The notes: generated from the letters alone by a model not told the origin. Shown: positions 3,110 to 61,967, counted from the stretch's first letter. The stretch: 64,000 nucleotides of DNA from a plasmid (GCF_054482595.1 NZ_JBTHVH010000001.1), one strand, 5' to 3'. Numbers and translations: made by a program.

Positions 3110-3126
3110 ATTGCTCTAATAATTCC
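3110..3126 (+). promoter_or_regulatory. C1 repressor operator-like site
   Basis: ATTGCTCTAATAATTCC vs P1 C1 operator consensus ATTGCTCTAATAAATTT. Confidence 0.6.
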
Positions 3127-3137
3127 ATATTTTTAAA

Positions 3138-3166
3138 ACGTGATGTACACTCATCACGTTTTTTAT
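3138..3166 (+). terminator. Rho-independent terminator-like hairpin
   Basis: stem acgtgatg / catcacgt with 7-nt loop followed by T-run. Confidence 0.5.
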
Positions 3167-3175
3167 TAGAGCAAT
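3159..3175 (-). promoter_or_regulatory. C1 operator-like site (inverted)
   Basis: ttttttattagagcaat, reverse complement resembles operator consensus; forms inverted pair with 3110..3126. Confidence 0.45.
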
Positions 3176-4744: not shown

Positions 4745-5251
4745 TTGAGTATTTTCAATAAACACGCACACCAGGAACGTCCGTATATCGTCATAGTTGA
4801 TATTGATGGAACAATATCAGAGGCAACTGAAGACAGACTGCATTTGCTTCCGCCACCAGGTAAAGGTGCATTAACAAAGGACTGGAACGAGTTTAATCTC
4901 GCCTGTGACACCGATACTCCCATCACTCCAGTTATTGATATGGTGCGCCAGTTATTTAACGTTTACACGGTCTGGTTTGTAACCGGGCGCTGTGAGATCG
5001 CAAGGGATAAAACACGAGCCTGGCTGCGGAAGTACGTAACAAACGGGGCTGAGCCTTTGCTATCTATGCGTCCTGCCACCGATGACAGAAATGACGGCCC
5101 AGCAAAGATTGATCTCCTTAAGAAAATTGGTCTAAGTAAAATCGCGTTCGCGCTGGAAGATAAGATTGAAGTGGCGCGTGTTTTCAGGAGGCACGGCGTG
5201 CTTACGTTAATGGTCAGGGAGTATGAAAATGCGCTTCTTCATCAACAATGA
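4745..5251 (+). CDS. HAD-superfamily phosphatase/nucleotidase-like protein
   Basis: TTG start with AGGAGG SD; VDIDGTI (DxDGT) motif near N-terminus. Confidence 0.6.
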   Translation: MSIFNKHAHQERPYIVIVDIDGTISEATEDRLHLLPPPGKGALTKDWNEFNLACDTDTPITPVIDMVRQLFNVYTVWFVTGRCEIARDKTRAWLRKYVTNGAEPLLSMRPATDDRNDGPAKIDLLKKIGLSKIAFALEDKIEVARVFRRHGVLTLMVREYENALLHQQ

Positions 5252-5267
5252 TTGCTCTAATAAATCT
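5251..5267 (+). promoter_or_regulatory. C1 operator-like site
   Basis: ATTGCTCTAATAAATCT, 16/17 match to consensus. Confidence 0.65.
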
Positions 5268-14985: not shown

Positions 14986-15002
14986 ATTACTCTAATATAT
15001 TG
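14986..15002 (+). promoter_or_regulatory. C1 operator-like site upstream of lpa
   Basis: ATTACTCTAATATATTG, 14/17 to consensus. Confidence 0.5.
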
Positions 15003-15610: not shown

Positions 15611-16804
15611 GTGACCTGGGACGATCACAAGAAGAATTTTGCTCGCCTGGCGCGAGATGGTGGTTACACCATCGCACAGTATGCCGCCGAGTTTAATCTT
15701 AACCCTAATACTGCACGTCGTTATCTCCGTGCCTTCAAAGAAGACACCAGGACAGCGGACAGCCGCAAGCCAAATAAGCCAGTCAGGAAGCCACTAAAAA
15801 GCATGATCATTGATCACTCTAATGATCAACATGCAGGTGATCACATTGCGGCTGAAATAGCGGAAAAACAAAGGGTTAATGCCGTTGTCAGTGCCGCAGT
15901 CGAGAATGCGAAGCGCCAAAATAAGCGCATAAATGATCGTTCTGATGATCATGACGTGATCACCCGCGCCCACCGGACCTTACGTGATCGCCTGGAACGC
16001 GACACCCTGGATGATGATGGTGAACGCTTTGAATTCGAAGCTGGCGATTACCTGATAGATAACGTTGAAGCGCGGAAGGCCGCTCGCGCTATGTTGCGTC
16101 GGTCCGGGGCCGATGTTCTGGAAACCACTCTTCTGGAAAAGTCTCTTTCTCATCTCCTTATGCTGGAGAACGCCAGGGATACGTGTATTCGTCTGGTGCA
16201 GGAAATGCGCGATCAGCAAAAAGACGATGATGAAGGGACTCCGCCTGAATATCGTATCGCGAGCATGCTAAACAGCTGTTCCGCGCAGATAAGCAGCCTG
16301 ATCAACACCATTTACAGCATCCGGAATAACTATCGAAAAGAAAGCCGGGAGGCGGAAAAGCACGCTTTATCTATGGGGCAAGCTGGCATTGTTAAGCTGG
16401 CATACGAACGAAAGCGTGAAAATAACTGGTCAGTGCTGGAAGCAGCTGAATTCATCGAGGCGCATGGCGGAAAAGTGCCGCCCCTGATGCTGGAGCAAAT
16501 CAAAGCCGATCTGCGTGCTCCTAAGACCAATACCGATGATGAGGAAAGGCAAACAGCCGTCGGTGGCCCTTCTCTTGAAGATCTGGACAAAGTTGCGCGA
16601 GAACGGGCCGCCAACCGCCGCGCCGATGCCGCATTGTGGATTGAGCAGCGTAGGGAAGAAATCGCCGATATCGTTGATACAGGCGGTTATGGAGATGTTG
16701 ATACTGAAGGTGCATCAAACGACCCATGGCTGGAACAAGACCTGGACGAAGACGAGGAGGAAGACGAAGAAGTTACCCGCAAGCTATACGGGGATGATGA
16801 TTAA
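15611..16804 (+). CDS. pacA: terminase small subunit / pac recognition protein
   Basis: 397 aa; contains the hexanucleotide pac site; GTG start with AAGGAAG SD. Confidence 0.9.
15804..15962 (+). other. P1-type pac site (packaging cleavage region)
   Basis: Four TGATCA elements (15804, 15811, 15823, 15838) and three TGATCA/G elements (15934, 15946, 15957) flank a ~90-bp core. Confidence 0.8.
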
Positions 16805-18288
16805 TGGCCAGAAGTTGCGTAACGGATCCACGTTGGCGCGAGCTGGTGGCGCTATATCGTTATGACTGGATTGCTGCCGCTGATGTTTTGTTCGGCAAAA
16901 CACCTACCTGGCAGCAGGATCTGATTATTGAGTCTGTGCAGGAACAGGGTAGCAAGACATCTGTTTCGTCTGGTCACGGTACCGGGAAATCAGACATGAC
17001 TTCTATCATGATCATGTTGTTCATAATCATGTATCCCGGTGCCCGCGCCATTATCGTTGCGAACAAAATTCAGCAGGTAATGACCGGTATATTCAAGTAC
17101 ATCAAGATAAACTGGGCTACTGCCACCAGCCGTTTTCCATGGCTTGCTGATTATTTTGTTCTGACAGAAACCGCTTTCTATGAGGTTACTGGTAAAGGTG
17201 TATGGACTGTAGTACCGAAGGGCTTTCGTCTGGGAAGTGAAGAAGCTCTCGCCGGTGAACACGCAGATCATCTTCTGTATATTATCGATGAAGCCTCCGG
17301 TGTCAGTGATAGAGCTTTCGGTATCATCACCGGTGCTCTTACCGGACAGGATAACCGCATCTTATTACTGTCACAGCCTACACGCCCAAGCGGCTATTTC
17401 TACGATACTCATCATAAACTGGCCAAGCGTCCTGGTAACCCTGATGGCGTTTATACGGCGATCACGCTTAACAGTGAGGAATCACCGCTGGTAACGCCAG
17501 CATTTATCAAAATGAAGCTGGCGGAGTACGGCGGGCGCGATAACCCTATGTACATGATTAAGGTACGCGGCCTATTCCCTAAATCACAGGATGGCTTCCT
17601 TCTTGGACGTGATGAGGTTGAACGTGCAACGCGGCGGAAAGTCAAGATTGCCAAAGGATGGGGCTGGCTTGCATGTGTGGACGTTGCTGGTGGTACGGGA
17701 AGGGATAAGTCCGTTATCAATATCATGATGGTGTCCGGCCAGAGAAATAAACGCCGTGTAATCAACTATCGAATGCTGGAATACACAGACGTTACAGAAA
17801 CGCAGCTTGCCGCCAAAATTTTCGCAGAATGTAATCCTGAGCGATTCCCAAATATCACCATAGCGATAGACGGCGATGGGCTGGGTAAAGCAACAGCGGA
17901 TCTGATGTACGAGTATTATGGTATTACCGTACAGCGTATACGCTGGGGTAAAAAGATGCATAGCCGTGAAGATAAGAGCCTGTACTTTGATAAACGTGCT
18001 TATGCCAACGTTCAAGCCGCAGAGGCCGTAAAATCTGGTCGTATGAGACTGGATAAGGGTAATGAAACTATTGAGGAAGCGTCGAAAATCCCTGTAGGGA
18101 TTAACTCCGCAGGTCAATGGAAGGTGATGAGTAAGGAGGATATGAAGAAAAAACTCAACCTGCACTCACCAGACCATTGGGATACATATTGTTTCGCTAT
18201 GCTGGCGGATTATGTTCCCCAGGACGAAGTGCTTAGCGTCGAAGACGAAGCGCAGGTTGATGAAGCTCTGGCATGGCTTAATGAATGA
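16804..18288 (+). CDS. pacB: terminase large subunit
   Basis: 494 aa; ATG overlaps pacA stop. Confidence 0.9.
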
Positions 18289-18291
18289 ACA

Positions 18292-18308
18292 TTTGCTCTA
18301 ATAAATTG
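18292..18308 (+). promoter_or_regulatory. C1 operator-like site upstream of icd/ant module
   Basis: TTTGCTCTAATAAATTG, 15/17 to consensus. Confidence 0.6.
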
Positions 18309-18438
18309 TGTTTTTTAACTACCGATGTTACATTGAACCTGACCTCTTGCGCCTTGAGGCATTTTCGGTTTATGCTTATCAGGCACCTCAGTAAAACGGG
18401 TGCCGGGATTGGCCTCCCGCTTAAGTCTAAGGCGATAC

Positions 18439-18462
18439 AGACGCCGCTCGCGTCTTTTTTTT
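18439..18462 (+). terminator. terminator-like hairpin inside the ant leader
   Basis: agacgc cgctc gcgtct followed by T7 run. Confidence 0.45.
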
Positions 18463-18479
18463 GTATCGGCGTACACGCA

Positions 18480-18600
18480 CACCTCTACAATGGTGGGCTG
18501 TATGGGGCTACCTTCGGGTAGGCTGGTTACCTTGGACGCCAGTAAGGCCAACTCCGTACAGTCCACCGCCAGCAAGATTGGTCTCTTCTGCGGTGGTTAC
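18480..18600 (+). ncRNA. candidate c4-like antisense RNA region (boundaries not resolved)
   Basis: UUCG-loop hairpin ggctaccttcgggtaggc; CCTTGGACG (18530..18538) near-complementary to GTCTAAGG at the icd SD. Confidence 0.25.
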
Positions 18601-18627
18601 ATACCAACGTCTAAGGAGGCTGCCAAT

Positions 18628-18849
18628 ATGGCTACTATCCCTACCCCAACTCATCCTGAATTTATCTGGCGCTTTTACTCCTGCCAAAAACGTCACTATC
18701 ACTTCGTTATTGCACCGACAGAAGATGAGGCACGTTCTCAGCTTCCTGACGCCCCATGTATTTTCTCTGCCCGTTTTTCCACTGATTCACGCAATTCTCT
18801 CAGTTACTGGTGCCTCCCTGTTAACGCTTCTGCTCAGGAGGGACTATGA
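18628..18849 (+). CDS. icd: Icd-like small protein (73 aa)
   Basis: ORF whose stop overlaps ant start (ATGA); AGGAGG SD. Confidence 0.55.
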   Translation: MATIPTPTHPEFIWRFYSCQKRHYHFVIAPTEDEARSQLPDAPCIFSARFSTDSRNSLSYWCLPVNASAQEGL

Positions 18850-19964
18850 GAACATCGTTAGTTACCCGTGAAGAGATGATCGAGGCAATTGAACAGCACA
18901 CTGCCTGTATCAGTACCAGGGATATACCAGGCGTTATTGCCAACTACTTCATGATCACCAAACAACTTTACCGGAGAAAGGACAAGAACGCGGTTCACCG
19001 TATCCTGTTGTCTGATATCCGCGAATACCTGCTCGAACAGGGTCATCTGAATTACGCAACCGTCGCAGCCGAATCACGCAAGGAGGCACACAGAATGAAA
19101 GCAACTAACGTTAAATCAGAAAAAATTCATGCACCTTCAGTTCAGGAATCGGAGCTGGTGGTTGTTCAGAATCAGTCTGATGAAATTCCCGTTCTGGAAT
19201 GGCAGGGAGTGCGTGTAGTGACAACCGAGACTCTTGCTAGAGGGTATGGGACAGAAACAATCCGTATTCGCCAAAATCATCATGAGAACAAAGTACGCTT
19301 TGTTGAAGGGAAGCACTTTTTCAAAGTTGAAGGAGAATCATTGCGCGAGTTGAAGCACAGAGTAGCTTTAAACTACTCTGTAAAAATTGCTCGCAATGTT
19401 CGCTCACTCACCCTCTGGACAGAACGCGGCGCAGCCCGCCACGCTAAAATGCTCGAAACCGATCAGGCATGGGCATTCTTTGAAAAACTGGAAGACAGCT
19501 ACTTCCGACAAAAAGAACAGCAACCGATCGCAATCCCCCAAACATTACCAGAAGCCCTACGCCTGGCTGCCGAACTGGCTGAACAAAAGCAGCTTCTGGA
19601 ACAGAAAGCCCACCAGCTAAATCAGCAGCTGGTGGCCGCCGCTCCTAAGGTCGATTTTGCCGACCGGGTATCAGTAGCTAAAGGGATCCTGATTGGGAAT
19701 TTTGCAAAGGTTGTTGGACTTAAGCAAAACGCGCTGTTTGTCTGGTTACGGGAGAACGGCATCCTGATAGCGTCCGGTGGACGTAAAAATGTGCCGTTCC
19801 AGCAGTACATCAACGCGGGGTATTTCACGGTGAAAGAAGTGGTGCTGGATGATGAAGATGGCTACCAGATACGGTTGACGCCTCAATTAACGGGTAAAGG
19901 CCAGCAGTGGTTGACGCGTAAACTGCTCGATGCTGGCTTGTTAAAACCGGTGGCGGCTGAATAA
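18846..19964 (+). CDS. ant: antirepressor (central Rha/ORF6N-like domain, C-terminal KilAC-like domain)
   Basis: 372 aa; C-terminal FADRVSVAKGILIGNFAKVVGLKQNALF resembles KilAC/Ant C-terminal domain. Confidence 0.75.
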   Translation: MRTSLVTREEMIEAIEQHTACISTRDIPGVIANYFMITKQLYRRKDKNAVHRILLSDIREYLLEQGHLNYATVAAESRKEAHRMKATNVKSEKIHAPSVQESELVVVQNQSDEIPVLEWQGVRVVTTETLARGYGTETIRIRQNHHENKVRFVEGKHFFKVEGESLRELKHRVALNYSVKIARNVRSLTLWTERGAARHAKMLETDQAWAFFEKLEDSYFRQKEQQPIAIPQTLPEALRLAAELAEQKQLLEQKAHQLNQQLVAAAPKVDFADRVSVAKGILIGNFAKVVGLKQNALFVWLRENGILIASGGRKNVPFQQYINAGYFTVKEVVLDDEDGYQIRLTPQLTGKGQQWLTRKLLDAGLLKPVAAE

Positions 19965-19968
19965 TGGA

Positions 19969-19990
19969 AGAATGCCCGGTTGATGCCGGG
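19969..19990. terminator. palindromic hairpin between convergent ant and c1
   Basis: atgcccgg ttgatg ccgggcat perfect inverted repeat. Confidence 0.45.
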
Positions 19991-19996
19991 CATAAT

Positions 19997-20848
19997 TTAT
20001 TGCGCGCTTTCGGGGTTGTCGTTTACTGGCTGCCCCTTCTTGGTTTTACGGCTGCGCGTAACTGATGCGGCTGACTTAACCTTTTTCTCTTCGCGAGTGA
20101 TGGCAATTTGTTTTTTTACATTTTCAATATCTGCCAGGCGATATATTTTTGCTTGCGGCCAGCGGTCGCAGATGATCGGTTCTATGGAGTCATAAAGGCT
20201 AAATTTTGCTTTTTCGAATTCACCGTTGATGATAATTCCATCACGGAGAGTTTCATCGCAGATAAACACGCCACACAGTGGCACATGGTAACTAACTGAT
20301 TTACCATCATTGTAGTTAGGGCTACTGGAAATGTAGTGGACGCGCAGCATTGTTTCGCTAAAGCCGTGTACGCGCATACGGAATTTTTCATCCTCCGGGT
20401 ACTGCCTCATTAGCTCTTTTGTTGCTTCCAGGTTCTCTATGTATTTCGCACTGTGCTCATTGATCCCCGCGCTTTTTTGGATGCGAATGTCCTTATCAAT
20501 CAGATGAATAATGCGGCCAGCGGTCATGTTGACGCTGTTCACAGCTTCTGTCTGATAAGTTGTAACCTTGCGCACACCGCGAAGGATGTTAGGCACTGGA
20601 TATAAAATAGTCTTTGGGATATTGAGGTCTGGGTACTGTTCCAGTTCCCGCGCCATTAAAGTCCATTTATCAATTTCAGCCTGAATGCTGTCTGTTTCTT
20701 TGAACGGTAGAACGACAACCGGGCGTACAGGACGACCGTCGCTGGCGGCATCAACGTGTTGGGCGCGTGCAACAGCTTTTTTTAGAAAGAGATCCCTGAA
20801 GCTGACGAACTCCTGGTACAGTTGTTCGCCGTAGACATAATTTATCAT
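19997..20848 (-). CDS. c1: C1 master repressor
   Basis: 283 aa MINYVYGEQLYQEFVSFRDLF... matches recalled P1 C1. Confidence 0.9.
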   Translation of the reverse strand: MINYVYGEQLYQEFVSFRDLFLKKAVARAQHVDAASDGRPVRPVVVLPFKETDSIQAEIDKWTLMARELEQYPDLNIPKTILYPVPNILRGVRKVTTYQTEAVNSVNMTAGRIIHLIDKDIRIQKSAGINEHSAKYIENLEATKELMRQYPEDEKFRMRVHGFSETMLRVHYISSSPNYNDGKSVSYHVPLCGVFICDETLRDGIIINGEFEKAKFSLYDSIEPIICDRWPQAKIYRLADIENVKKQIAITREEKKVKSAASVTRSRKTKKGQPVNDNPESAQ

Positions 20849-20942
20849 TGATCCTCCTCCAGAATTGACATGGTCAATAACGCCCGGCTGAGAAAACCGG
20901 TCATTACTGACCTATATTATAGAGGGATCAAACAAAAATAAT

Positions 20943-20959
20943 AGATTTATTAGTGCATT
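20943..20959 (-). promoter_or_regulatory. weak C1 operator-like site
   Basis: agatttattagtgcatt, about 13/17 to reverse-complemented consensus. Confidence 0.35.
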
Positions 20960-21168
20960 TATTGTGAGTCTAACTGGTTAGTTGTCATGAGATATTCGAT
21001 TGTGTCAGTGAGGTCATCCAGGTCGTCTTGGGTGATGCGGTACTCCTGATTGGATATCTTTGAGTAGTGTTCAGCAATGGCGCGGGCAGCGTCGGTTTCG
21101 GCAGGGTCTACAGATAAAGCGTTAGAGCAATGTCTAACGTCGTCGATGGTTGGTTGAATGAAAGCCAT
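20959..21168 (-). CDS. coi: C1 inactivator
   Basis: 69-aa ORF directly upstream of c1 on same strand. Confidence 0.8.
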   Translation of the reverse strand: MAFIQPTIDDVRHCSNALSVDPAETDAARAIAEHYSKISNQEYRITQDDLDDLTDTIEYLMTTNQLDSQ

Positions 21169-21406
21169 AATTATGCCTCACTGTATTGACAACACAGAGC
21201 CCGAAGCTCTGACCTACTGTTTCACCCATGATCCATGCTGGGGTAATCTAACAACATTGCGCTGTGTGTAAGATGAGCAATGCATAGCTGTAATGCCGTT
21301 GTATAAGGTTTCCCTGTTTGCTCATTTCCTTCTGAGCCGCTCTACAACGCTGAAGACACATTAAATAGTGAATCCAAAGTCGTATTACGTAACGGCGGCA
21401 AAACTA

Positions 21407-21423
21407 TAATTTATTAGAGCAAT
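21407..21423 (-). promoter_or_regulatory. C1 operator (immC cluster)
   Basis: taatttattagagcaat, near-perfect reverse-complement of consensus. Confidence 0.6.
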
Positions 21424-21489
21424 TGTCAAACAACTATGAAAAACAATCCAGTTTTTAGCTGGTGGAGTGGGATTTTTCTCTCAAAATTT

Positions 21490-21506
21490 ATTGCTCTAAT
21501 AATTCT
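21490..21506 (+). promoter_or_regulatory. C1 operator (immC cluster)
   Basis: ATTGCTCTAATAATTCT. Confidence 0.65.
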
Positions 21507-21549
21507 TGATTTTTATGCGCAGCTGGACGTAAACTCCTCTTCGGATCTA

Positions 21550-21583
21550 ATAACTTCGTATAGCATACATTATACGAAGTTAT
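21550..21583 (+). other. loxP: loxP recombination site
   Basis: Exact ATAACTTCGTATA-GCATACAT-TATACGAAGTTAT. Confidence 0.98.
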
Positions 21584-21772
21584 ATTAAGGGTTATTGAAT
21601 ATGATCAATTTACCTGTAAATCCATACAGTTCAATACTGTAGCAGGTCAAATAGTGACCACTTGATCATTTGATCAAGGTTGCGCTACGTAAAATCTGTG
21701 AAAAATTGGCGGTGTTAGTCCTACAGATTTCGCGTAGCGCACTTAGCACCACCAATCAATCAGAGGTGAAAA

Positions 21773-21994
21773 ATGGGATATTCAACTGCTAAAGTGTCCA
21801 CTCATCTTGAGCTTGAGAAAAACCGTGGTTACTGGCGGGCAAAAGGGTTTGATCGTGATAGTTGCCAACTGTCATTATCGCGCGGTGAAGAGAAAATAGA
21901 ACGCACGCGCGGTCGCTGGCGTTTCTATGACGAGAACCATAAACAGGTAAAGGCAGAGCCGATCCTGTACACTTTACTTAAAACCATTATCTGA
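21773..21994 (+). CDS. hypothetical small ORF between loxP and cre (73 aa)
   Basis: GAGGTG SD upstream of ATG; may be chance ORF in cre promoter region. Confidence 0.3.
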   Translation: MGYSTAKVSTHLELEKNRGYWRAKGFDRDSCQLSLSRGEEKIERTRGRWRFYDENHKQVKAEPILYTLLKTII

Positions 21995-22001
21995 GTGTTA
22001 A

Positions 22002-23033
22002 ATGTCCAATTTACTGACCGTACACCAAAATTTGCCTGCATTACCGGTCGATGCAACGAGTGATGAGGTTCGCAAGAACCTGATGGACATGTTCAGGGAT
22101 CGCCAGGCGTTTTCTGAGCATACCTGGAAAATGCTTCTGTCCGTTTGCCGGTCGTGGGCGGCATGGTGCAAGTTGAATAACCGGAAATGGTTTCCCGCAG
22201 AACCTGAAGATGTTCGCGATTATCTTCTATATCTTCAGGCGCGCGGTCTGGCAGTAAAAACTATCCAGCAACATTTGGGCCAGCTAAACATGCTTCATCG
22301 TCGGTCCGGGCTGCCACGACCAAGTGACAGCAATGCTGTTTCACTGGTTATGCGGCGGATCCGAAAAGAAAACGTTGATGCCGGTGAACGTGCAAAACAG
22401 GCTCTAGCGTTCGAACGCACTGATTTCGACCAGGTTCGTTCACTCATGGAAAATAGCGATCGCTGCCAGGATATACGTAATCTGGCATTTCTGGGGATTG
22501 CTTATAACACCCTGTTACGTATAGCCGAAATTGCCAGGATCAGGGTTAAAGATATCTCACGTACTGACGGTGGGAGAATGTTAATCCATATTGGCAGAAC
22601 GAAAACGCTGGTTAGCACCGCAGGTGTAGAGAAGGCACTTAGCCTGGGGGTAACTAAACTAGTCGAGCGATGGATTTCTGTCTCTGGTGTGGCTGATGAT
22701 CCGAATAACTACTTGTTTTGCCGTGTCAGAAAAAATGGCGTAGCTGCGCCATCTGCCACCAGCCAGCTATCAACTCGCGCCCTGGAAGGGATTTTTGAAG
22801 CAACTCATCGATTGATTTACGGCGCTAAGGATGACTCTGGTCAGAGATACCTGGCCTGGTCTGGACACAGTGCCCGTGTCGGAGCCGCGCGAGATATGGC
22901 CCGCGCCGGAGTTTCAATACCGGAGATCATGCAAGCTGGTGGCTGGACCAACGTAAATATTGTCATGAACTATATCCGTAACCTGGATAGTGAAACAGGG
23001 GCAATGGTGCGCCTGCTGGAAGATGGCGATTAG
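22002..23033 (+). CDS. cre: Cre tyrosine recombinase
   Basis: 343-aa protein recognised as P1 Cre across its length. Confidence 0.98.
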   Translation: MSNLLTVHQNLPALPVDATSDEVRKNLMDMFRDRQAFSEHTWKMLLSVCRSWAAWCKLNNRKWFPAEPEDVRDYLLYLQARGLAVKTIQQHLGQLNMLHRRSGLPRPSDSNAVSLVMRRIRKENVDAGERAKQALAFERTDFDQVRSLMENSDRCQDIRNLAFLGIAYNTLLRIAEIARIRVKDISRTDGGRMLIHIGRTKTLVSTAGVEKALSLGVTKLVERWISVSGVADDPNNYLFCRVRKNGVAAPSATSQLSTRALEGIFEATHRLIYGAKDDSGQRYLAWSGHSARVGAARDMARAGVSIPEIMQAGGWTNVNIVMNYIRNLDSETGAMVRLLEDGD

Positions 23034-23050
23034 CCATTAACGCGTAAATG

Positions 23051-23067
23051 ATTGCTCTAATTCTTTG
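23051..23067 (+). promoter_or_regulatory. C1 operator-like site downstream of cre
   Basis: ATTGCTCTAATTCTTTG. Confidence 0.55.
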
Positions 23068-23083
23068 ATATTTATGGCGACAT

Positions 23084-23395
23084 ATGAGAAAGAATTTCAA
23101 CATCGACGGAAAATATGTAGTGCTGTCAGTGAGCACTAATATTCAGTCGCCAGCCGTCATTGTCACTGTAAAGCTGAGCGATAGAATGCCTGATATTGAC
23201 TCAATATCCGTTGCGTTCCCTGTCAGAAGTATGCGTAGTGCTGAACATTTCGTGATGAATGCCACCGAGGAAGAAGCACGGCGCGGTTTTGCTAAAGTGA
23301 TGTCTGAGTTTGGCGAATTTTTGGGGCACGTTGACAAAGCCCTCTCAATCAGTTCAGCAAGATCCAAAGCATTAACAGCTTCCATGATGAAATAA
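23084..23395 (+). CDS. hypothetical protein (103 aa), cre-adjacent
   Basis: ORF preceded by operator-like site. Confidence 0.5.
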   Translation: MRKNFNIDGKYVVLSVSTNIQSPAVIVTVKLSDRMPDIDSISVAFPVRSMRSAEHFVMNATEEEARRGFAKVMSEFGEFLGHVDKALSISSARSKALTASMMK

Positions 23396-23396
23396 A

Positions 23397-23420
23397 AAAA
23401 GCCTGGCAAGGAGCCAGGCT
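23397..23420 (-). terminator. terminator-like hairpin (minus-strand U-tract)
   Basis: gcctggc aagga gccaggc with A-run on plus strand (T-run on minus). Confidence 0.4.
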
Positions 23421-23526
23421 GCACAAAAGAGCGGGTTTGTATTCCGCATCCAATCAATCAAGAAGGAGTATAGCACACAGGTACTGACGTGAAAAAATAT
23501 GATTCGCGATAAACAAAATACCTATC

Positions 23527-23543
23527 ATTGCTCTAATTGAGCC
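23527..23543 (+). promoter_or_regulatory. C1 operator-like site
   Basis: ATTGCTCTAATTGAGCC. Confidence 0.45.
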
Positions 23544-23623
23544 GCAGTTTTTGTCAACTACGAAGACGTGGCCATTACCTACTCCTTTGAAATCATTGGC
23601 GACCATTAGGCCGCCTTTTTTAA

Positions 23624-24676
23624 TCATTCAGCCGCCACCGGTTTTAACAAGCCAGCATCAAGTAGCTTGCGAGTCAACCACTGCTGGCCTTTACCCGTTA
23701 ATTGGGGCGTCAGCCGTATCTGGTAGCCATTTTCATCATCCAGCACCACTTCTTTCACCGTGAAATACCCGGCGTTGATGTACTGTTGGCGCGGTACGTT
23801 TTTGCGCGCACCAAAAGCCATGAGAATGCCGTTCTGGCGCAACCATGAGAAAAGGGCGTTTTGCTTCAGTCCAACGACCTTTGCAAAGTTCCCGATCAGG
23901 ATTCCATTAGCCACTGATACCCGAACGGCAAAATCGACTTTAGGGGCTGCGGCCACCAGCTGCTGATTTAGCTGGTGGGCTTTCTGTTCCAGAAGTTGCT
24001 TTTGTTCAGCCAGCTCGGCAGCCAGGCGCAGAGCTTCGGGGAGTGTTTGGGGGAGCACTGGAGAAGCAGTGTTAGCCTGCTGCAATTCCTCCAGTTTGTC
24101 GATCAGCGAACGGCGGACCGCTTTTGACTCGCGCGCGGCAACTCGCAGGGCTTGTTTGTAGGTCATGGAGATAGTTTCAGATGTTGTGTTGTTTAATTTT
24201 TGCACTACGAAAATTTCGTAGTACTCACCATCCAGTTCATCCTTAACTCTGGCAATAAAATCATTATTGCGAACTGGTTTTTCGCTGCATAATTTCCGCG
24301 CTTCATTGACCATCTTCAACAATGTTTGGCTGTCTATTGTGTCGCCGCTGTTGGGGATAACATTCACGGCTGGTGCAGTTGTTCCCAAAGACTTCGTAAC
24401 TACAGCGTCTGGTTTGCTTGCTTTCATTCTGTGTGCCTCCTTGCGTGTTTCGGCTGCGACGGTTGCGTAATTCAGATGCCCCTGTTCGAGCAGGTATTCA
24501 CGGATATCGGTTAGCAGAATGCGGTGAACCGCGTGTTTGTCCTTTCTCCGGTAAAGTTGTTTGGTGATCATGAAGTAGTTGGCAATAACGCCTGGTATAT
24601 CCCTGGTACTGATACAGGCAGTGTGCTGTTCAATTGCCTCGATCATCTCTTCACGGGTGACTAATGACGTTCTCAT
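23624..24676 (-). CDS. antirepressor paralog with alternative central domain
   Basis: 350 aa; first ~85 aa and last ~110 aa nearly identical to 18846..19964 product, middle unrelated. Confidence 0.7.
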   Translation of the reverse strand: MRTSLVTREEMIEAIEQHTACISTRDIPGVIANYFMITKQLYRRKDKHAVHRILLTDIREYLLEQGHLNYATVAAETRKEAHRMKASKPDAVVTKSLGTTAPAVNVIPNSGDTIDSQTLLKMVNEARKLCSEKPVRNNDFIARVKDELDGEYYEIFVVQKLNNTTSETISMTYKQALRVAARESKAVRRSLIDKLEELQQANTASPVLPQTLPEALRLAAELAEQKQLLEQKAHQLNQQLVAAAPKVDFAVRVSVANGILIGNFAKVVGLKQNALFSWLRQNGILMAFGARKNVPRQQYINAGYFTVKEVVLDDENGYQIRLTPQLTGKGQQWLTRKLLDAGLLKPVAAE

Positions 24677-24894
24677 AGTCCCTCCTGAGCAGAAGCGTTA
24701 ACAGGGAGGCACCAGTAACTGAGAGAATTGCGCAAATCGGTAGAAAAGCGGGCAGAGAAAATACAGGGAGCATCCGGAAGCTGAGAACGTGCCTCATCTT
24801 CTGTTGGTGCGATAACGAAGTGATAGTGACGTTTCTGGCAGGAGTAAAAGCGCCAGATAAATTCAGGGCGTGCGCAAGGATTGGCATTAACCAT
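24673..24894 (-). CDS. Icd-like small protein, second copy (73 aa)
   Basis: Same architecture as 18628..18849; differs in first ~10 residues. Confidence 0.55.
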   Translation of the reverse strand: MVNANPCARPEFIWRFYSCQKRHYHFVIAPTEDEARSQLPDAPCIFSARFSTDLRNSLSYWCLPVNASAQEGL

Positions 24895-24899
24895 AGTTA

Positions 24900-25205
24900 C
24901 GGCCTCATGTACAGGTTTAACAACCTGCTATCCGCTGCTAAACGGGTGGCAGGACGTGACGGGGTTAGCAGACTGGCGTACATGAAACCAGCAGGCCGAA
25001 GCCTCCCCATCACGCCCCACCATAATTCGGGCGTAACGTGGTTTTACGGACACAAAAATACCGCAATATCGGATATCTGCGGTTGTCCGCATGTACATTC
25101 AGGCTGCTAAACCCGGTCGCAGAATTTGCTACGACGGCGGAACTATAAGCCTGAATGACAGGAAGATCAATAGTCTGGCGTTCAATGGTAGTATTTTTGC
25201 TCCAA
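24900..25205 (-). ncRNA. candidate c4-like antisense RNA region of second module (boundaries not resolved)
   Basis: Leader between operator and icd-like ORF; UUCG-loop hairpin gaggcttcggcct; sequence unrelated to forward-copy leader. Confidence 0.2.
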
Positions 25206-25211
25206 TAAATC

Positions 25212-25228
25212 AAATCTATTAGAGCAAT
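25212..25228 (-). promoter_or_regulatory. C1 operator-like site upstream of second icd/ant module
   Basis: aaatctattagagcaat. Confidence 0.6.
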
Positions 25229-25370
25229 AAATTATTATCCCAAGCTTTACAGTGCGCTGTAAAATTCAAACCTTCGGGTCAGTGGCGGAATCGTATTTCA
25301 CTCACGGAATGAGTATTATTAGTTTTGTCATACATAGCTAGGTAATGAATCACTTGAAGGAACTACGAAC

Positions 25371-26171
25371 ATGTCCGTGACCATTAGCGTCCTGCTGGAA
25401 AACAGACTTAAGCTTGGAGTTAAAAACTCGCTGCGTGCTAAAGCAGGACTTAGTCTGTTGATACAGGATGAAAACGATTCAATCCTGTTTGATACTGGGC
25501 CTGATGATAGCTTCATGTATAACGCAGGTTTAATGGGGGTCGATTTGACAAAACTGACCGCAGTTGTACTTTCCCATGGTCACTATGACCACTGCGGAGG
25601 TGTTCCGTGGATACCAGACACATGCAGGATAATATGCCATCCTATGGTGTCGGATGAGCGCTATTCGGCAATCAGGTTTTTAGGCTATACCGCCAGAATA
25701 AAAAAATTATCATTACATAATGATTTTTCACGTTTCCGCATGGAATACAGCAACACACCATTGCATATCAGTGAGCGTTTTATGTGGTCAGGAGAGATCC
25801 CTGTTGCCAGGCCACGCGCTTACGGTGTTATCGGGTGTAAGAATACGAAAGAAGATTACGTAAAAGATGAGGGGGTTTTAATTTATAAATCAGACTATGG
25901 GTTGATCATTTTTATCGGTTGTGGTCATTGCGGGGTAATTGATATTGTGCGCCACTGCCAAAATATAACCGGGATAAATCATATTCATGCAATTTTTGGT
26001 GGTCTTCATCTGCGCTGTGCGTCCCCTCTTATGCTCTGGAAGGTGAGACAGTTCTTACGCCTTCATAAACCAGATAAGATAATGGGGTGTCATTGTACTG
26101 GCAAATGGGGACGCTTGTGGTTACCGGAATCAACCTCTCCGGCAACAGGTGATGTTTATGTTCTTGGATAG
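25371..26171 (+). CDS. metallo-beta-lactamase-fold hydrolase (266 aa)
   Basis: HxHxDH motif SHGHYDHCGG preceded by ILFDTGPD; lower GC than backbone. Confidence 0.75.
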   Translation: MSVTISVLLENRLKLGVKNSLRAKAGLSLLIQDENDSILFDTGPDDSFMYNAGLMGVDLTKLTAVVLSHGHYDHCGGVPWIPDTCRIICHPMVSDERYSAIRFLGYTARIKKLSLHNDFSRFRMEYSNTPLHISERFMWSGEIPVARPRAYGVIGCKNTKEDYVKDEGVLIYKSDYGLIIFIGCGHCGVIDIVRHCQNITGINHIHAIFGGLHLRCASPLMLWKVRQFLRLHKPDKIMGCHCTGKWGRLWLPESTSPATGDVYVLG

Positions 26172-26488
26172 ACATGGTGCTGTTTCTGTTCATGTCGATT
26201 GTGTGGTTGGGGGCAAGAAAGAATTCACCTTGCTGAATAAGTCAGAGATGGAGTTGCTGGCTGACGCCTATGAGATGGCAAACGTCATGCACTAATAAAT
26301 ATATTATTTTTAATGATAAATGATTGACAACTGACAAGTGACTTCAGCCAGAATCATCACACGCCCGGTACGGATGGATCCCTTTTCAAATATTCCATGG
26401 ACGGCACAGTCTGAGTACCGGGCGCTACCTTCAGTTGTATGTATTGCTAAGCCGCCGCTGGTGGCTTTTCTTTTTTGTAGGGGGCGCT

Positions 26489-27130
26489 ATGGATAAGAAA
26501 ATATGCGTTGTTTCGATGAGCGTCGGCAAACCGGCGTCAATGACTGCTGCATGGATCAATAACGAGCTGATAATGGCTGAGCGGACCAGCTACCCTGAAC
26601 GCCGCCGCGATATGGAACTCCAGCTGCTGCGCGAATTGCGAGAAAAAGAGGAAAAGGGGTTTATCGTGCTGGTGGAAGAGGAAAACAGCTTTATTACTGG
26701 TCGAGTTGGCCAGCGTGTAAGGTTGCGCGATCCCTTCATGAACGGCAGGCCGGTACTAATTGAGGCAATGCAGATTTATAAGGAGTTGGAACGCCAGAAA
26801 GCAATCAAGTTACCGCGCAAGGAATCCGGCAAATACATCCTCCACCAAAGCATCTTCGATTCCGAACACGATAAAAAAGGCGATGAATTTTTCAACATCA
26901 ACTGGAGCGAAATAACGACAGAGCATGTTCTGACGTTACTATGTTGCTTTGCGACGGAATACAACAACGTTGCCAGCGCCGACTACATCAGGGCAATGGC
27001 TGGAGAAGTTGAGGCACGCCAGGAACCATCGTTACTAAGCCCTCTGATTAACATAATTCGCAGAACCCAAACACTGGCGCAAAAACAAGTACCACAAGGG
27101 GAATTGACGGGTAAAGGTAATTATCTCTGA
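26489..27130 (+). CDS. hypothetical protein (213 aa)
   Basis: ATG with AGGGGG SD inside ORF-track ORF 26435..27130; no recognisable motif. Confidence 0.55.
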   Translation: MDKKICVVSMSVGKPASMTAAWINNELIMAERTSYPERRRDMELQLLRELREKEEKGFIVLVEEENSFITGRVGQRVRLRDPFMNGRPVLIEAMQIYKELERQKAIKLPRKESGKYILHQSIFDSEHDKKGDEFFNINWSEITTEHVLTLLCCFATEYNNVASADYIRAMAGEVEARQEPSLLSPLINIIRRTQTLAQKQVPQGELTGKGNYL

Positions 27131-27169
27131 AAGATGCCCGGCGATAGACCGGGCAAAAGGGCGGAAAGT

Positions 27170-33800: not shown

Positions 33801-34656
33801 CCAGGGGGATTTTCTCAGCCATCTCCGCCGGATGTTTGCGCATCAGCACCACGTCAACGACCGTACTGGTCCCGTTTGCGTCAAAAGTACCGGTAGGCAA
33901 GCGGTGGGCACCAAGAAATTCAGCTTTCCGTGATAGGCGCAGGCGTAACCGCTTCATGTTTGAACCTGAAACAATGGACGGCGGCACAATCACGCACATG
34001 AATCCGCCTGGCTTTATCTTGTCCAGCATGCGGAGCATGAAGTAAGAACCCATGTCCGTTTCTTCTGCGTAAGGCTTATCGATGTTGCGTGTGTTATCAC
34101 GACCACCGAACGGAACGTTACCCACAACATGGTCGAATGAATCGTTAGGCGTGCTTACAGCCAGTTGTTCGAACGGGGAAATCTGTACGCTGTCTTCCGG
34201 ATGTAACAGCTGGTTTATACGACCGGAAACACTGCTGATCTCAGTCGCGGTCATCACCGTACCAACCGGTTTTGTCTCATTAAAAACGCCGGTGCCCGCC
34301 GATGGTTCCAGAGTGTTACCTACGTCCGCGCCGTAGAGCTTCATGATCTCCCAGACACCTTCAGCGATCGGCTTTGGTGTGTAATATTCGGAGACGGACC
34401 CGCCAATGCCACCTTCACCGGTGTACCCAGCCAGGATCTGGCGCTGTTCATCTGTCAGTGTCGCGCCGTCCACCAGCGAATTAAGCAAATCTATCGCCTT
34501 CTGATTCGCCTCACGGCGCAGTCGGTCATAGCTTTTGCCTTCCACCTTTTCCACGCCGTATTTAATCGGCGCTCGGTGAGATGTTATTGCCCTAATGTAT
34601 TTCAATATTTCGCTGACACTTGAACAGCGAAACACCCCCATAGATAGCTTGTTCAT
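27889..34656 (-). CDS. darB: DarB antirestriction protein (methyltransferase + helicase domains)
   Basis: 2255-aa ORF; helicase motifs GFGTGLGKT and DEGHNYRN. Confidence 0.85.
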   Translation of the reverse strand: MNKLSMGVFRCSSVSEILKYIRAITSHRAPIKYGVEKVEGKSYDRLRREANQKAIDLLNSLVDGATLTDEQRQILAGYTGEGGIGGSVSEYYTPKPIAEGVWEIMKLYGADVGNTLEPSAGTGVFNETKPVGTVMTATEISSVSGRINQLLHPEDSVQISPFEQLAVSTPNDSFDHVVGNVPFGGRDNTRNIDKPYAEETDMGSYFMLRMLDKIKPGGFMCVIVPPSIVSGSNMKRLRLRLSRKAEFLGAHRLPTGTFDANGTSTVVDVVLMRKHPAEMAEKIPLVDEDTLESANVLWPTFISGKWFEKDGRRFVHGTQEKGFQGRIEVRADGQIDNQALKAKLIHRFESRIDWSLLDMAEPSPTADVVDEGEMRLINGVWQKYAGGRWIEADAGKELKIEVASYGADSWEALQRNLTTTEGRLGMTFTQMANVRDKYTTSISDDMVQLVDWINSQPEKYRERLYRGAMIGRMLIEYQDMKAAGHSAEQIEQQRLSLVSRLQAEIDRFGNPGRGPIAKLSGSGARAWFAFRGAIKLDGTISDELTGKLVTHDSSASYDSTSYQDTLRYLYSDLTRDPIQLDDFRLAFTGELPASDDELLNLLASTPGIAVSPYGGIVPFARATSGDINEIVAPKQEFLATLPDGPVKNNVLNQLAAIEEKRIKTPAENIRFKLNSRWFDRSVILEFLQENGYPDLRYVQSVQLEGDEMVSDTYHGGDGLFVGHRYGVVQRKDKETGEIRYEWDRKSGENATGFPAQLEKYLNGARIGGKDSATANGYREQMALLEDQFNTWIKTHDRYDELVAKYNDVFNSNIPYEHSGDPLGLKGLSGKRQPFDYQNSEVRRLSEDGRGILGFGTGLGKTTTALALEAFNYENGRSTRTAYVVPKSVLENWYYEAKEFLSEEAFSNYLFVGLDVLMDGDQIRLVPVLDENGKPVVGADGTPVMRDALKLADEATITARMNAIPHSNYRAVVFTKEQYARIPLRDDTVDEHAQDMLYDFVAAGRVASAMDSDSHRKEAARRRVLSEYSDTGTEKAEKYPYFEDMGFDSVIADEGHNYRNSYKNGREASQLAYLPTSAVAQSARDMAIKNAYLMKKNGGRGPVLLTATPVVNTPIDAYNMLSHVLPKEYWQNMGIYGPDDFVKFFGKTRLETVQKISGEVEEKMALVGFENLDALRGIFHRWVTLKTAEDVKDTVEIPELDEHQQDAPLTEEQLAAYEELRQQAEAAAKANNGVTTSVNEDGVIEHEKARPIFSIIRDMDRVCTDMDLYYRRITYRFLPEYADAVQQLADSLPKQATSEDDDSDDSITQQSQYSLIDKGEFIQLQVPEAFEQEVNKRLARFGIDEQTVTHPVTPKYAKLIATLKEFFPEGKQIIFTDEKTQHQKLKRIICNALNLEPSKVGILNAQTVAEAGKTGKKLKAVKPPKELPDEPTDAQIAKYNEQMALYDAYIAQQNEMSLGGLEKIAADFQEGRTPIIICNKKAEVGINLHRGTTDIHHLTLPWTPASIAQRNGRGARVGSNRASVRVHYYCGKGSFDEYRLKTLKRKAGWISDILRSDKSEMENADANDMIEMQMYTAKDDGERLAMMQVQMDKAKAAKRARQKEQATIDLQNYIKAQHAAGEDVEVLTAELERSKAELEKTTAEVAKFKQAAMAKAADNADWKARWGSVHHTDRMLLAQYRASLKSAIQRKANISQAISRYEKLLNRTQKAATDIKRLRPLVEDAINKGILDVDPDLVNHANEFLVIGDRSWRVGQYYDCAGDIVRIKSLDFDSQRADVEIIFTLRGTKSGNWDVKTLDKQVDVTPDEDAVMQKISGGVSIAGINDIISCDDFYRFQQRGMIKITDSYGVQTTESGYSIDFVGTYTDPLKHAVYPDRRDGALKSSIAKWVLGMMSEGNNRQVRLAEVFLTELFGSNYGDVIASYGDTLSPEAIQEKIADAIARMPEKTSQGATRNGDSELEVTNAIFGTHEFRASDYEITTAQFGTIGIYSNKAEIKQAMDAASARIAAEREANLNHAVAALTQSWVTAIREAATTGKITPAIADVVNDGSKFMDAYKMDAVQLPSAYGQLSYRMTYNLVSMFSDLAILGLVDLNEVTPELLSMRKNHVEILQRINTVLAGRTDEEKQADADRINLALGNITEEEIAARNEKQEELSSIQGDATSIAQSLGLNYRVSTADLKMMYAPKFAAGEVFGLQEASGMKGILFRAKDAIKAKFGARWLPAKAKNSDFPGNWWIIETKHNVADVLAVIQQYA

Positions 34657-38435: not shown

Positions 38436-38452
38436 ATTGCTCTAATCATTTT
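38436..38452 (+). promoter_or_regulatory. C1 operator-like site upstream of ssb
   Basis: ATTGCTCTAATCATTTT. Confidence 0.55.
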
Positions 38453-39957: not shown

Positions 39958-40154
39958 TAAAAACCCCGTCAGTTGGCGGGGAACTCCACGTCAAATGGCC
40001 AATTGTTATGTCAGCTAGCAGTTAAAGCGCCTAGTCATCATCTTTTAAAGAAGTCTTTTTAACTTACCTAAATTAGTGACACCTCCCGTTTTGCTTGCTA
40101 TTGTACGCATTCATGAATCTATTCATTAATCTATTCACAATAGTAATTAAAACT

Positions 40155-41459
40155 ATGGCTATACATGCAACAACAATCCGTAATTTGCTCAATCAAGGTC
40201 CTATGACACCAAGACAATTGGTTGAAAGACTAGGTGTTAGCCAACCAACGATATCTAGAGCATTAAGAGATCTTGGTGATGAAATCGTTAGGATCGGAAA
40301 TGGAAGATCTATTCAATATGCTTTACGAGACTCTTTTAGAGGATTCGAATCAGTCCCCATTTATCGTATAACTGAAGAGGGGTGTATTTGCGTTCTTGGT
40401 ACTCTCATTCCGGTGAGGCCAGAAGGCTATGTTATGGTTGAGGAAGGGAAAAATAACAGGCATAGCGATGGGTTACCTTGGTGGTTATTTGATATGCGTC
40501 CACAAGGCTTCCTTGGAAGAGCATATGCATCAGCATATGCTCTTGAACTTAACCTTCCCTCAAATCCAGAGCAATGGTCAGATACTGACGTGATCAAAGC
40601 CTTACTTAAGCATGGGCATGATGTTGTTGGTAATTTGTTAATTGGAGAGCAAGCACGCACGCATTTTTTAGAGATGCAGCCTCCTGTTCCTGTTAATCGT
40701 GAAAGTGAATATCCTGTATTAGCTTTAGCTGCTGGTGAAGGTGATGTGCCCGGTTCATCTGCTGGAGGTGAACAACCCAAATTTTGTACTTTCACAGAGC
40801 GTGGACATGTATTAGTGAAATTCTCTGCGCCTAACGACACCCCTATAAGTGAGCGTTGGAGAGATCTCTTGTTTGCTGAACATCTCGCATTAAAAGTTCT
40901 GGGGGTAGAAACAGAAGTTTTTGATTATAACGGTCAGAGATTCTTGGAAATTCCCCGATTTGATCGTGTTGGTCAACTAGGTCGGGTAGGTGTATTCTCA
41001 CTTCGTGCACTTGATGCAGAATTTGTTGGGAATGCAAGAGCAACATGGCCCTTGCTGGTTAAAGAGTTGGTAAAAAATAAGTGCGTCCATCCTGATGCGA
41101 TTATTATAGCAACAAGGCTATGGTCTTTTGGTTTGCTAATAGGCAATACCGATATGCATAATGGTAACCTATCGTTTATTAGTAGCCACGGACGCCCATA
41201 TCATATTGCTCCAGCCTATGACATGTTACCTATGGGTTTTGCTCCACGCTCTGGGGGAGCAATATCTAATGAGCTTAGAAAAACAGCACTACCAGACTTT
41301 GTAAGTCGAAAAATATGGGATGAATCTCTTGAATTGGCTGAAAAATTTTATGCATTGGCCTGTGAGTCCGACAAATTCTCAGCTAACTTTACTCCATGTT
41401 TAGAAGCGCTACGCATCCACCTAGATGATTGTAAGATACGCATAGCCCGCCTGGCATAA
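40155..41459 (+). CDS. HipA-family Ser/Thr kinase with N-terminal HTH (YjjJ/HipH-like architecture)
   Basis: HTH MTPRQLVERLGVSQPTISRALRDLG; catalytic-loop GNTDMHNGNLS; AT-rich; start could be 40095/40113. Confidence 0.7.
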   Translation: MAIHATTIRNLLNQGPMTPRQLVERLGVSQPTISRALRDLGDEIVRIGNGRSIQYALRDSFRGFESVPIYRITEEGCICVLGTLIPVRPEGYVMVEEGKNNRHSDGLPWWLFDMRPQGFLGRAYASAYALELNLPSNPEQWSDTDVIKALLKHGHDVVGNLLIGEQARTHFLEMQPPVPVNRESEYPVLALAAGEGDVPGSSAGGEQPKFCTFTERGHVLVKFSAPNDTPISERWRDLLFAEHLALKVLGVETEVFDYNGQRFLEIPRFDRVGQLGRVGVFSLRALDAEFVGNARATWPLLVKELVKNKCVHPDAIIIATRLWSFGLLIGNTDMHNGNLSFISSHGRPYHIAPAYDMLPMGFAPRSGGAISNELRKTALPDFVSRKIWDESLELAEKFYALACESDKFSANFTPCLEALRIHLDDCKIRIARLA

Positions 41460-41490
41460 ACAACAAATCCCGCCGATTGGCGGGATTTCT

Positions 41491-48906: not shown

Positions 48907-49041
48907 ATGCTAATAGGCTATGTACGCGTATCAACAAATGAACAAAACACTGCTTTACAACGAAACGCTCTTGAAAGCGCAGGATGTGAGCTAATTTTTG
49001 AGGACAAGGCGAGTGGAAAAAAGGCTGAACGACCAGAGTGA
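48907..49041 (+). pseudogene. cin: truncated cin-like serine invertase (first ~44 codons only)
   Basis: [44 protein letters not shown]-stop matches Hin/Gin/Cin N-terminus with catalytic Ser; no resolvase core or HTH follows. Confidence 0.7.
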
Positions 49042-60990: not shown

Positions 60991-61071
60991 GATCTTATCG
61001 CCTACCGTTTCGGTTTAAGTTTTTCTTCCAGTTTCTCCAACAGGAAAAACGCATAGGATTCAGTAAGCCTT

Positions 61072-61953: not shown

Positions 61954-61967
61954 CCTTGCTCCTTAAT

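Follow-up and report, generated by a model that had tools for sequence, protein, structure and literature searches.

Two immI-type antirepressor cassettes with their own C4 antisense RNA codes flank the immC core of a P1-like phage-plasmid

Two complete modules converge on the immC/cre core

The sequence analyzed here is a 64,000-nucleotide (nt) stretch of a P1-like plasmid (GCF_054482595.1, NZ_JBTHVH010000001.1), referred to below as the window. Two full modules, each consisting of an operator, a leader, a C4 antisense RNA, and the genes icd and ant (the latter encoding an antirepressor), were located at 18292–19964 on the plus strand and at 23624–25228 on the minus strand, and both converge on the c1–coi–loxP–cre–c8 segment. 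We consider it likely that these are two extra, complete immI-type cassettes that a P1-like phage-plasmid gained on either side of immC, each of them a self-contained, C4-gated circuit with a recognition code of its own. For P1-like phage-plasmids in general, there is about an even chance that a combinatorial antisense 'barcode' is in use, in which freely reassorting a and b elements, matched at three sites, provide at least 16 specificities, and up to five orthogonal cassettes are carried together in an arms race. A preliminary description of the window, made from the sequence alone, had proposed that two immI-like modules flank the immC core convergently and that C1 operator-like 17-mers precede both; the open reading frames (ORFs), the repeats, the Rfam matches, and the operator scan bore this out.

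In the P1 record (NC_005856), immI is a single locus at 48.1–49.7 kb followed by kilA-repL, the stop codons of pacB and c1 are 24 nt apart, and the order after cre is c8-ref-mat-res. The preliminary description had taken P1 to have a single, distant immI and a cre gene followed by ref/mat/res, which agrees with this record, c8 preceding ref. Reference P1 has neither of the extra modules. Relative to it, the left module is a clean 1.7-kb insertion in the pacB–c1 spacer, and the right module, together with a gene for an MBL-fold protein, stands where P1 has ref, between c8 and mat; ref is absent from this locus in the window.

All elements of the left module lie on the plus strand. It begins with a C1 operator-like 17-mer (TTTGCTCTAATAAATTG, 18292..18308) that lies 4 nt after the pacB stop and has two mismatches to the P1 consensus ATTGCTCTAATAAATTT. 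The isrK-type leader (18383..18460; Rfam RF01394 isrK, 60.0 bits, gathering score 50) includes an a1 decoy (TTGGCCT, 18409–18415) and a b1 decoy (GTCTAAGG, 18425–18432), both complementary to the C4 loops, and an intrinsic terminator detected by the terminator scan (18439–18455 plus a T-run). The C4 antisense RNA (18486..18573; RF01695, 75.9 bits, gathering score 45) belongs to a scaffold that we call LA and folds at −41.6 kcal/mol (z = −3.5), with b' (CCTTGGAC, 18530–18537) in a hairpin loop and a' (AGGCCAA, 18545–18551) single-stranded. Downstream of C4, the a2 target (TTGGTCT, 18578–18584) pairs with a' and the b2 target (GTCTAAGG, 18609–18616) with b', each with one G-U wobble, and b2 overlaps the Shine-Dalgarno sequence of icd. 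The 73-codon icd (18628..18849), which the nearest record annotates as Icd-like, has a stop codon that overlaps the start of ant by 4 nt (ATGA), and ant (18846..19964) encodes 372 amino acids (aa), with an Ant1-type N-terminal extension (residues 1–85), an ORF6N center, and a KilAC C-terminus. A G+C-rich hairpin (19972..19993; nine pairs, six of them G-C, in the terminator scan) lies between the convergent stops of ant and c1. No antQ-type antiterminator operon was found in the ORF list downstream of the left ant, the c1 stop being 32 nt away.

The right module lies entirely on the minus strand. Two promoters were predicted by a scan, with the annotated P1 promoters as the alignment reference: TTTACA-18-GATAAT (25263–25234), which abuts the C1 operator (25228–25212, one mismatch), and TTGATC-17-TATAGT (25170–25142), which lies at the position of P1 P51b. 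The leader (25090..25148) matched Rfam RF03163 (c4-a1b1) over 25096–25148 with 55.5 bits (gathering score 46.7), and its a1 (25104–25110) and b1 (25090–25096) decoys showed 100% pairing with C4. The C4 antisense RNA (24942..25027; RF01695, 71.7 bits, gathering score 45) has the P1 scaffold, folds at −45.4 kcal/mol (z = −5.2), and contains b' (CATGTAC, 24978–24984) and a' (CTGCTAA, 24965–24971). The a2 target (TTAGCAG, 24935–24941) and the b2 target (GTACATG, 24906–24912), the latter at the icd ribosome-binding site, paired at 100% across the leader alignment described below. The 73-codon icd (24673..24894) extends 4 nt over the start of ant (23624..24676), which encodes 350 aa with a Pfam ANT/KilAC domain and a central part like that of the P1/P7 Ant. 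A strong intrinsic terminator after ant (23400..23420, AGCCTGGCTCCTTGCCAGGCT then TTTTTTATTT) is predicted to end transcription of the right module before c8/cre. Neither module is followed by kilA-repL: the left one runs into the 3' end of c1, according to the ORF list, and the right one into the terminator and c8. In relatives, kilA-repL comes after the third, canonical module only. The absence of kilA-repL after the extra modules is a property of the locus and not of the cassette.

Recognition codes differ between modules and are compensated at three sites

When the leaders of the left and right modules were aligned with those of P1, P7, RCS47, and the third module of the nearest relative, the parts were in register and followed one order (operator, promoters, a1, b1, C4, a2, and b2 on the icd Shine-Dalgarno sequence), and the same sites are annotated in the P1 record. 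The folds placed b' in the loop of the second hairpin of C4 and a' in the single-stranded stretch after it. The target sequences are TTGACAG (a) and GTTAGTG (b) in P1, and TTAGCAG (a; a' CTGCTAA) and GATTGTG (b; b' CACAATC) in both P7 and the canonical module of the relative. The right module of the window combines the P7-type a element with the b target GTACATG (b3), and the left module has the a and b elements given above. In each module of the window, a' and b' match their own a1/b1 and a2/b2, and the whole code differs from that of the other module and from that of the canonical immI in relatives. Therefore, each C4 should gate only its own ant. The heteroimmunity of P1 and P7 has itself been ascribed to small differences in immI (PMC6906374).

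Variation in the leaders was concentrated where the RNAs would touch. When 21 P1-scaffold leaders were aligned (246 columns, mean identity 94%), 45 columns varied, and 24 of these fell within the 42 columns of the six recognition elements. Between C4 and a2/b2, all 168 cells were paired, 8 of 14 pairs had changed on both sides, and none of 500 shuffles reached the observed score, with slid controls at 24–52%; the comparison of a1/b1 with C4 gave the same figures (168/168, 8/14, and 0/500), with slid controls at 26–40%. An independent sample of 114 C4 copies, collected from IMG/VR viral contigs as exact P1-scaffold matches, was complementary in 445 of 446 site comparisons (a'–a2, 113/113; a'–a1, 110/110; b'–b1, 110/110; b'–b2, 112/113). 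Among the LA copies in IMG/VR, a2 paired with a' in 30/30 and b2 with b' in 29/29.

The sole exception on the P1 scaffold, a 4,928-nt contig (L055; IMGVR_UViG_2565956613_000015), is the only one of 113 copies in which b' (and b1) mismatches b2: an ACGAATG-type C4 stands before a GTTAGTG target. This copy may have arisen by natural recombination between C4 and the icd ribosome-binding site, in which case ant is predicted to be ungated, or the contig may be chimeric.

On the P1 scaffold, 11 codes were counted: two a alleles and five b alleles occurred in all ten possible combinations, and there was a sixth b allele. A second isrK-type scaffold, LB, had 2 × 2 = 4 codes, with a'–a2 and b'–b2 each complementary in 71/71 copies, and scaffold LA, the type of the left module, had a single code in 30 copies. 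The total was at least 16 codes, 11 on the P1 scaffold and five on isrK-type scaffolds. This reassortment of a and b elements, with every change mirrored at three sites, fits selection for RNA–RNA specificity, and not decay. Cognate C4–target pairs had predicted duplex energies of −26 to −29 kcal/mol. The right module against the P7-type canonical module gave −18 to −20 kcal/mol, the same range as P1 against P7, which are reported to be heteroimmune, and the left module against all others gave −8 to −11 kcal/mol. From this gap between cognate and non-cognate energies, we infer that the modules would be mutually orthogonal gates, and orthogonality of the C4 codes may be what sets immunity specificity in vivo.

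If the modules are expressed, they would probably act as follows. By analogy with the P1 biology annotated in NC_005856, C1 would limit transcription from the operator-proximal promoter. Processed C4 would pair with a2 and b2 and block the translation of icd, and hence the coupled expression of ant, while the a1/b1 segment of the leader would compete for C4; in the isrK type, this segment would be released as a short RNA (PMC4825925). Where C4 is titrated or absent, Icd and Ant would be made, and Ant would inactivate C1. Several resident C4 types might then silence more kinds of incoming ant, giving wider superinfection immunity, and an element arriving with several ant modules would be likelier to escape the resident set of C4 RNAs, giving wider anti-immunity.

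Extra cassettes recur and are stacked in P1-like elements

In PLSDB, 51 records from Escherichia coli, E. albertii, E. fergusonii, and Shigella covered at least 80% of positions 16800–26200 of the window in one collinear place. The left module was found in the pacB–c1 context in 270 records and the right module in the cre–c8 context in 55, so that the right module is nearly always accompanied by the left, at least 51 records having both. Of 5,426 complete E. coli genomes, 699 matched a P1-like pacAB/cre-c8 query and 40 had the double arrangement. The preliminary description had regarded the arrangement as new unless it proved to be the norm among P1-like genomes; it is recurrent, at about 6–7% of P1-like plasmids, and it is not the norm. 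The left module also occurs in the sequenced phages RCS47, JL22, and vB_EcoM-673R5.

The best plasmid match, NZ_CP123256.1 (99.5% identity), also has the canonical immI as a third module, and all six of the other double-module plasmids checked had one upstream of kilA-repL. In each of these seven triple-module genomes, the three codes were all different. The earlier suggestion that two antirepressor circuits would alter immunity is plausible and at the same time understated, in that relatives have the third module and the modules differ in C4 specificity.

Stacking is not confined to this arrangement. In a tally made by hand over 31 IMG/VR contigs of at least 80 kb, which took exact scaffold matches only and so gives minimum counts, one module was found in 13 contigs, two in 15, and three, four, and five in one contig each, so that 18 of the 31 had at least two. 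P1-like elements therein contained one to five cassettes, with a maximum of four P1-scaffold copies and one isrK-type copy on one contig. That contig (IMGVR_UViG_2703718869_000013, L136–L139, about 97 kb) has four P1-scaffold C4 RNAs and one LA copy, and another (IMGVR_UViG_2713896909_000009, L114–L116, about 97 kb) has three P1-scaffold C4 RNAs and one LB copy; in both, the P1-scaffold codes are all different. The cassettes occupied the canonical site (51 copies), the right site (10 copies), occasionally the left site with a P1 scaffold (L096), and sites elsewhere. Two divergent P1-scaffold C4 RNAs with different b codes lie about 1.8 kb apart on IMGVR_UViG_651053023_000001 (L093/L094, at approximately 3.5 and 5.3 kb), a head-to-head arrangement unlike that of the window. 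In NZ_CP142921.1, the canonical position upstream of kilA-repL has an isrK/LB-type leader instead of the P1 type (L020, 8233–8592), which indicates that RNA scaffolds are exchangeable between genomic positions; the left module and the canonical-position module of this plasmid have the same b element and different a elements.

Several points weigh against reading the cassettes as extra immI-type circuits with orthogonal codes. The right and canonical modules have the same a element, and partial cross-repression between them is possible. Among same-scaffold pairs within one element, 0 of 20 had an identical code and 1 of 20 had a common b element; this exclusivity is in the expected direction and suggestive, but it did not reach significance in comparison with random draws (P = 0.08 and 0.06), and the pairs depend on one another. 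The window ends about 2.1 kb short of the canonical immI position and does not include it, so three modules would be expected in this genome by comparison with its relatives. That C4 is produced and processed and that Ant binds C1 in this element are likewise predictions from homology. Finally, the ORF6N center of the left Ant is related to proteins of lambdoid phages, and its target may not be C1.

The Ant proteins are mosaic and may have more than one target

The last point leads to an alternative that we consider unlikely but the best of those available, namely, that the extra Ant proteins, and especially the left one of the ORF6N type, target the repressors of other prophages (lambdoid or Stx) and not P1 C1, in which case the phage-plasmid would induce or interfere with its competitors. 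Some Gifsy antirepressors act across prophages. Gifsy antirepressors bind and inactivate the lysogenic repressor, according to earlier work cited in PMC4825925. The left Ant has an ORF6N domain at residues 116–202 (E = 4.6e-19) and an ANT/KilAC domain at residues 260–361 (E = 3.7e-30) in Pfam. The isrK-type locus of Stx phage P13374 encodes an ORF6N protein with 58% aa identity to the central domain of the left Ant, and its DNA is 79% identical to the left leader. The P13374 ORF29 product ('regulatory protein'), considered as a match for the left Ant, showed no similarity to it; the true match is the adjacent ORF annotated as 'antitermination', together with the leader DNA. Part of the region encoding the center of the right Ant is 90% identical to Stx2a-phage antirepressor DNA.

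The right Ant, with its ANT/KilAC domain at residues 238–339 (E = 9.6e-28), is 76% identical to P1 Ant1 and 65% identical to the left Ant. Against the alternative, both modules are fronted by C1 operators and lie directly beside c1, and the P1-type N-terminal extension of Ant1, the Ant2 start, and the KilAC C-terminus are nearly identical to those of P1 Ant. Met84, predicted to serve as the Ant2 start, is invariant in the Ant proteins compared. The N-terminal extension (residues 1–85) and the KilAC C-terminus of the two Ant proteins of the window are closer to each other than to the canonical Ant, and the center is P7-like in the right protein and of the ORF6N type in the left. By sequence, the Ant proteins are mosaic. 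On balance, C1 would be the probable target of both, and we retain the reading of the modules as immI-type circuits acting on C1.

The inverted arms are shared cassette parts

The preliminary description had noted near-identical arms in the two modules and suggested that they could mediate an inversion of the segment between them. The homology was confirmed by the repeat finder: arm I1 (18655–19104/24418–24867) is 450 nt long and 94% complementary and comprises icd codons 10–73 and ant codons 1–86, and arm I2 (19534–19975/23613–24054) is 442 nt long and 87% complementary and comprises the 143 C-terminal codons of ant. The suggestion that followed from it, that recombination between the arms flips the 3.6-kb c1–coi–loxP–cre–c8 segment and yields two isomers with different immunity behavior, we regard as highly improbable. 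Two inverted arms of about 450 nt with 87–94% identity are long enough for RecA-dependent recombination, and either crossover would keep both ant frames intact, as chimeras. There is also occasional exchange between left and right arms, as in one element (L018) with 98.9% identity between its I1 arms, and for some right arms the nearest sequences are left arms of other plasmids.

As a query for the isomer, pacA–pacB was joined to reverse-complemented cre–c8, which can be covered in one place only if the segment is inverted, and a control of like design in the native orientation joined pacB to c1–coi and skipped the 1.7-kb module. At a threshold of at least 80% coverage, the inverted isomer was found in 0 of 708 matching PLSDB plasmids and in 0 of 699 matching complete E. 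coli genomes. For the control, 558 of 703 PLSDB plasmids showed the junction across the 1.7-kb module, and the method is therefore able to detect such junctions. All double-module records (at least 51) have the orientation of the window. In 13 double-module elements, left–right identity within a plasmid was 95.0% for I1 and 92.9% for I2, against 94.7% and 93.0% between plasmids; there was no signal of concerted evolution of the arms in these elements (permutation fractions of 0.08 for I1 and 0.67 for I2) and therefore no sign of frequent intramolecular exchange. No candidate for a dedicated recombinase was found beside the arms, a search that did not extend to recombination sites within them; loxP, the site at which Cre acts, is present once, and ref is absent. 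Inversion of the core as a fixed or common state was rejected on these counts, and rare flipping mediated by RecA may occur inside a population. Judged from their sequences, the arms are conserved parts of the cassette scaffold (icd with the Ant1 N-terminal extension, and the KilAC C-terminus) drawn from a shared pool, and not a switch.

A third explanation, that the extra modules are inert, duplicated or decaying immI remnants of recombination with other phages, is marginally less probable still: P1-like genomes are mosaic, the insertion sites are recognized regions of difference (PMC6906374), and some relatives have a truncated ant at these positions (L013 on the left, L014 on the right), but in the window icd and ant are full length in both modules, operators, promoters, and terminators are present, both C4 RNAs score above the Rfam gathering thresholds and have significantly better folds than shuffled sequences, and, most importantly, variation that is concentrated in the recognition elements and compensated at three sites is not expected of neutral decay.

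Other features of the window

Between the two modules, the immC/cre core (19997..23395) contains c1 (19997–20848, minus strand) and coi (20959–21168, minus strand), both from the ORF list, followed by loxP (21550–21583, an exact match in a single copy) and the plus-strand genes cra (21773–21994), cre (22002–23033), and c8 (23084–23395). The scan with the P1 operator consensus placed three C1 operators in the core (20943–20959, 21407–21423, and 21490–21506). Over the window as a whole, it returned 11 operator-like 17-mers, where 0.3 would be expected by chance. Those outside the region studied (3110–3175, 5251–5267, 14986–15002, 34586–34602, and 38436–38452), which include a close inverted pair at 3110 and 3159, are probably operators of other C1-controlled operons.

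To the right of the right module, a gene for an MBL-fold hydrolase (25371–26171) and a mat-like gene (26435–27130) replace the ref and res/mod neighborhood of P1, and this region looks like a variable cargo or defense spot. In NZ_CP123256.1, the mat-like gene is followed by a 1.3-kb SIR2-family gene (40478–41871) that is missing from the window (27126–27158). Two further segments of the window, 39958–41465 and 49027–53363, are not collinear with this nearest relative; by position, they belong to the neighborhood of the tail fibers and the invertible C-segment. At the right end, positions 60724–62660 correspond to 6105–4169 of the nearest-relative record, and positions 62660–64000 correspond to the same record again (5510–4170). 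The pattern resembles a tandem duplication of some 1.3 kb, either real or an effect of the assembly or of the construction of the window.

Significance and comparison with known systems

The heteroimmunity of P1 and P7 through C4 antisense RNA is a textbook case that rests on two phages. The codes collected here suggest that P1 and P7 are samples from a far larger space of modular codes, and that several orthogonal copies of the circuit run together in many natural P1-like elements. Provided that the codes work as predicted, they would determine which phage-plasmids coexist, exclude one another, or induce one another, and many such elements bear genes for resistance and virulence in E. coli, Shigella, Salmonella, and E. 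albertii. In addition, the cassettes would offer a ready set of natural orthogonal RNA-gated switches. As the a/b code could be read from the sequence alone, immunity groups could be predicted from it, and the idea is thereby open to a direct test.

Part of this is already known: the arrangement is recurrent in public data, and each half of it has been mentioned in print. In the open-access text on multiple immI loci or the diversity of C4 codes, only brief remarks were found, in PMC6906374, which describes an 'ant inserted between pacB and c1, as in RCS47' and 'homologs of icd-ant1/2 in RD-1' of another plasmid, with no further analysis; PMC9603915 does not mention these genes, and earlier descriptions may exist. 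The published open-access notes treat the insertions as single extra genes and are silent on the C4 RNAs, the codes, the pairing of the two insertions, and their stacking with the canonical immI. Three aspects appear to be undescribed in the open-access literature, namely, that each extra module is a complete C4 circuit with a code of its own, that a combinatorial repertoire of codes compensated at three sites extends far beyond P1 and P7, and that orthogonal cassettes are frequently stacked.

Among known systems, the C-segment of P1 (cin/cix) resembles the window in that inverted repeats bracket a few kilobases, but the arms in the window have no dedicated invertase alongside and no alternative orientation in any sequenced relative. 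The CI RNA of P4, with seqA and seqC, resembles C4 in mechanism: it too is a processed antisense RNA that pairs upstream and downstream in its own transcript, although it controls the termination of transcription of replication genes and not an antirepressor. The P4 seqA element has been named as a structural homolog of IsrK (PMC4825925). The insertion sites of the two modules are those of RCS47 and pTZ20_1P, which have ant between pacB and c1, and of pSvP1, which has icd-ant1/2 homologs in RD-1; the code of the RCS47 left module differs from that of the left module in the window.

The left module has close parallels in the isrK-orf45-anrP locus of Gifsy-1 in Salmonella (PMC4825925) and in Stx/lambdoid loci. 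Its leader is alike, with the isrK match in Rfam and a Rho-independent terminator, and in the Gifsy-1 locus, too, a C4-like RNA is processed, a small ORF is coupled to an antirepressor, and the leader is complementary to downstream sequences. Unlike in Gifsy-1, the small ORF of the left module is a P1-type icd, the antirepressor has P1-type N- and C-termini, and the cassette stands in a phage-plasmid under a P1 C1 operator, with no antQ-type antiterminator after it.

Both modules are closely related to the immI locus of P1 and P7 (Op51-c4-icd-ant1/2). They resemble it in the order of parts, the RF01695 C4 RNA, the a2/b2 targets at the icd ribosome-binding site, the promoter pair, the a1/b1 decoys, the 73-codon icd overlapping ant, the nested Ant2 start at Met84, and the KilAC C-terminus, and in the right module the P1 RNA scaffold is complete and about 94% identical. 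They differ in location, flanking immC instead of lying upstream of kilA-repL, and in copy number, with two extra copies here and three modules in relatives. The left Ant differs in its ORF6N central domain. In the codes, finally, neither module matches P1 or P7: the left module is built on a different scaffold, and the right module joins the P7 a element to a new b element, GTACATG.

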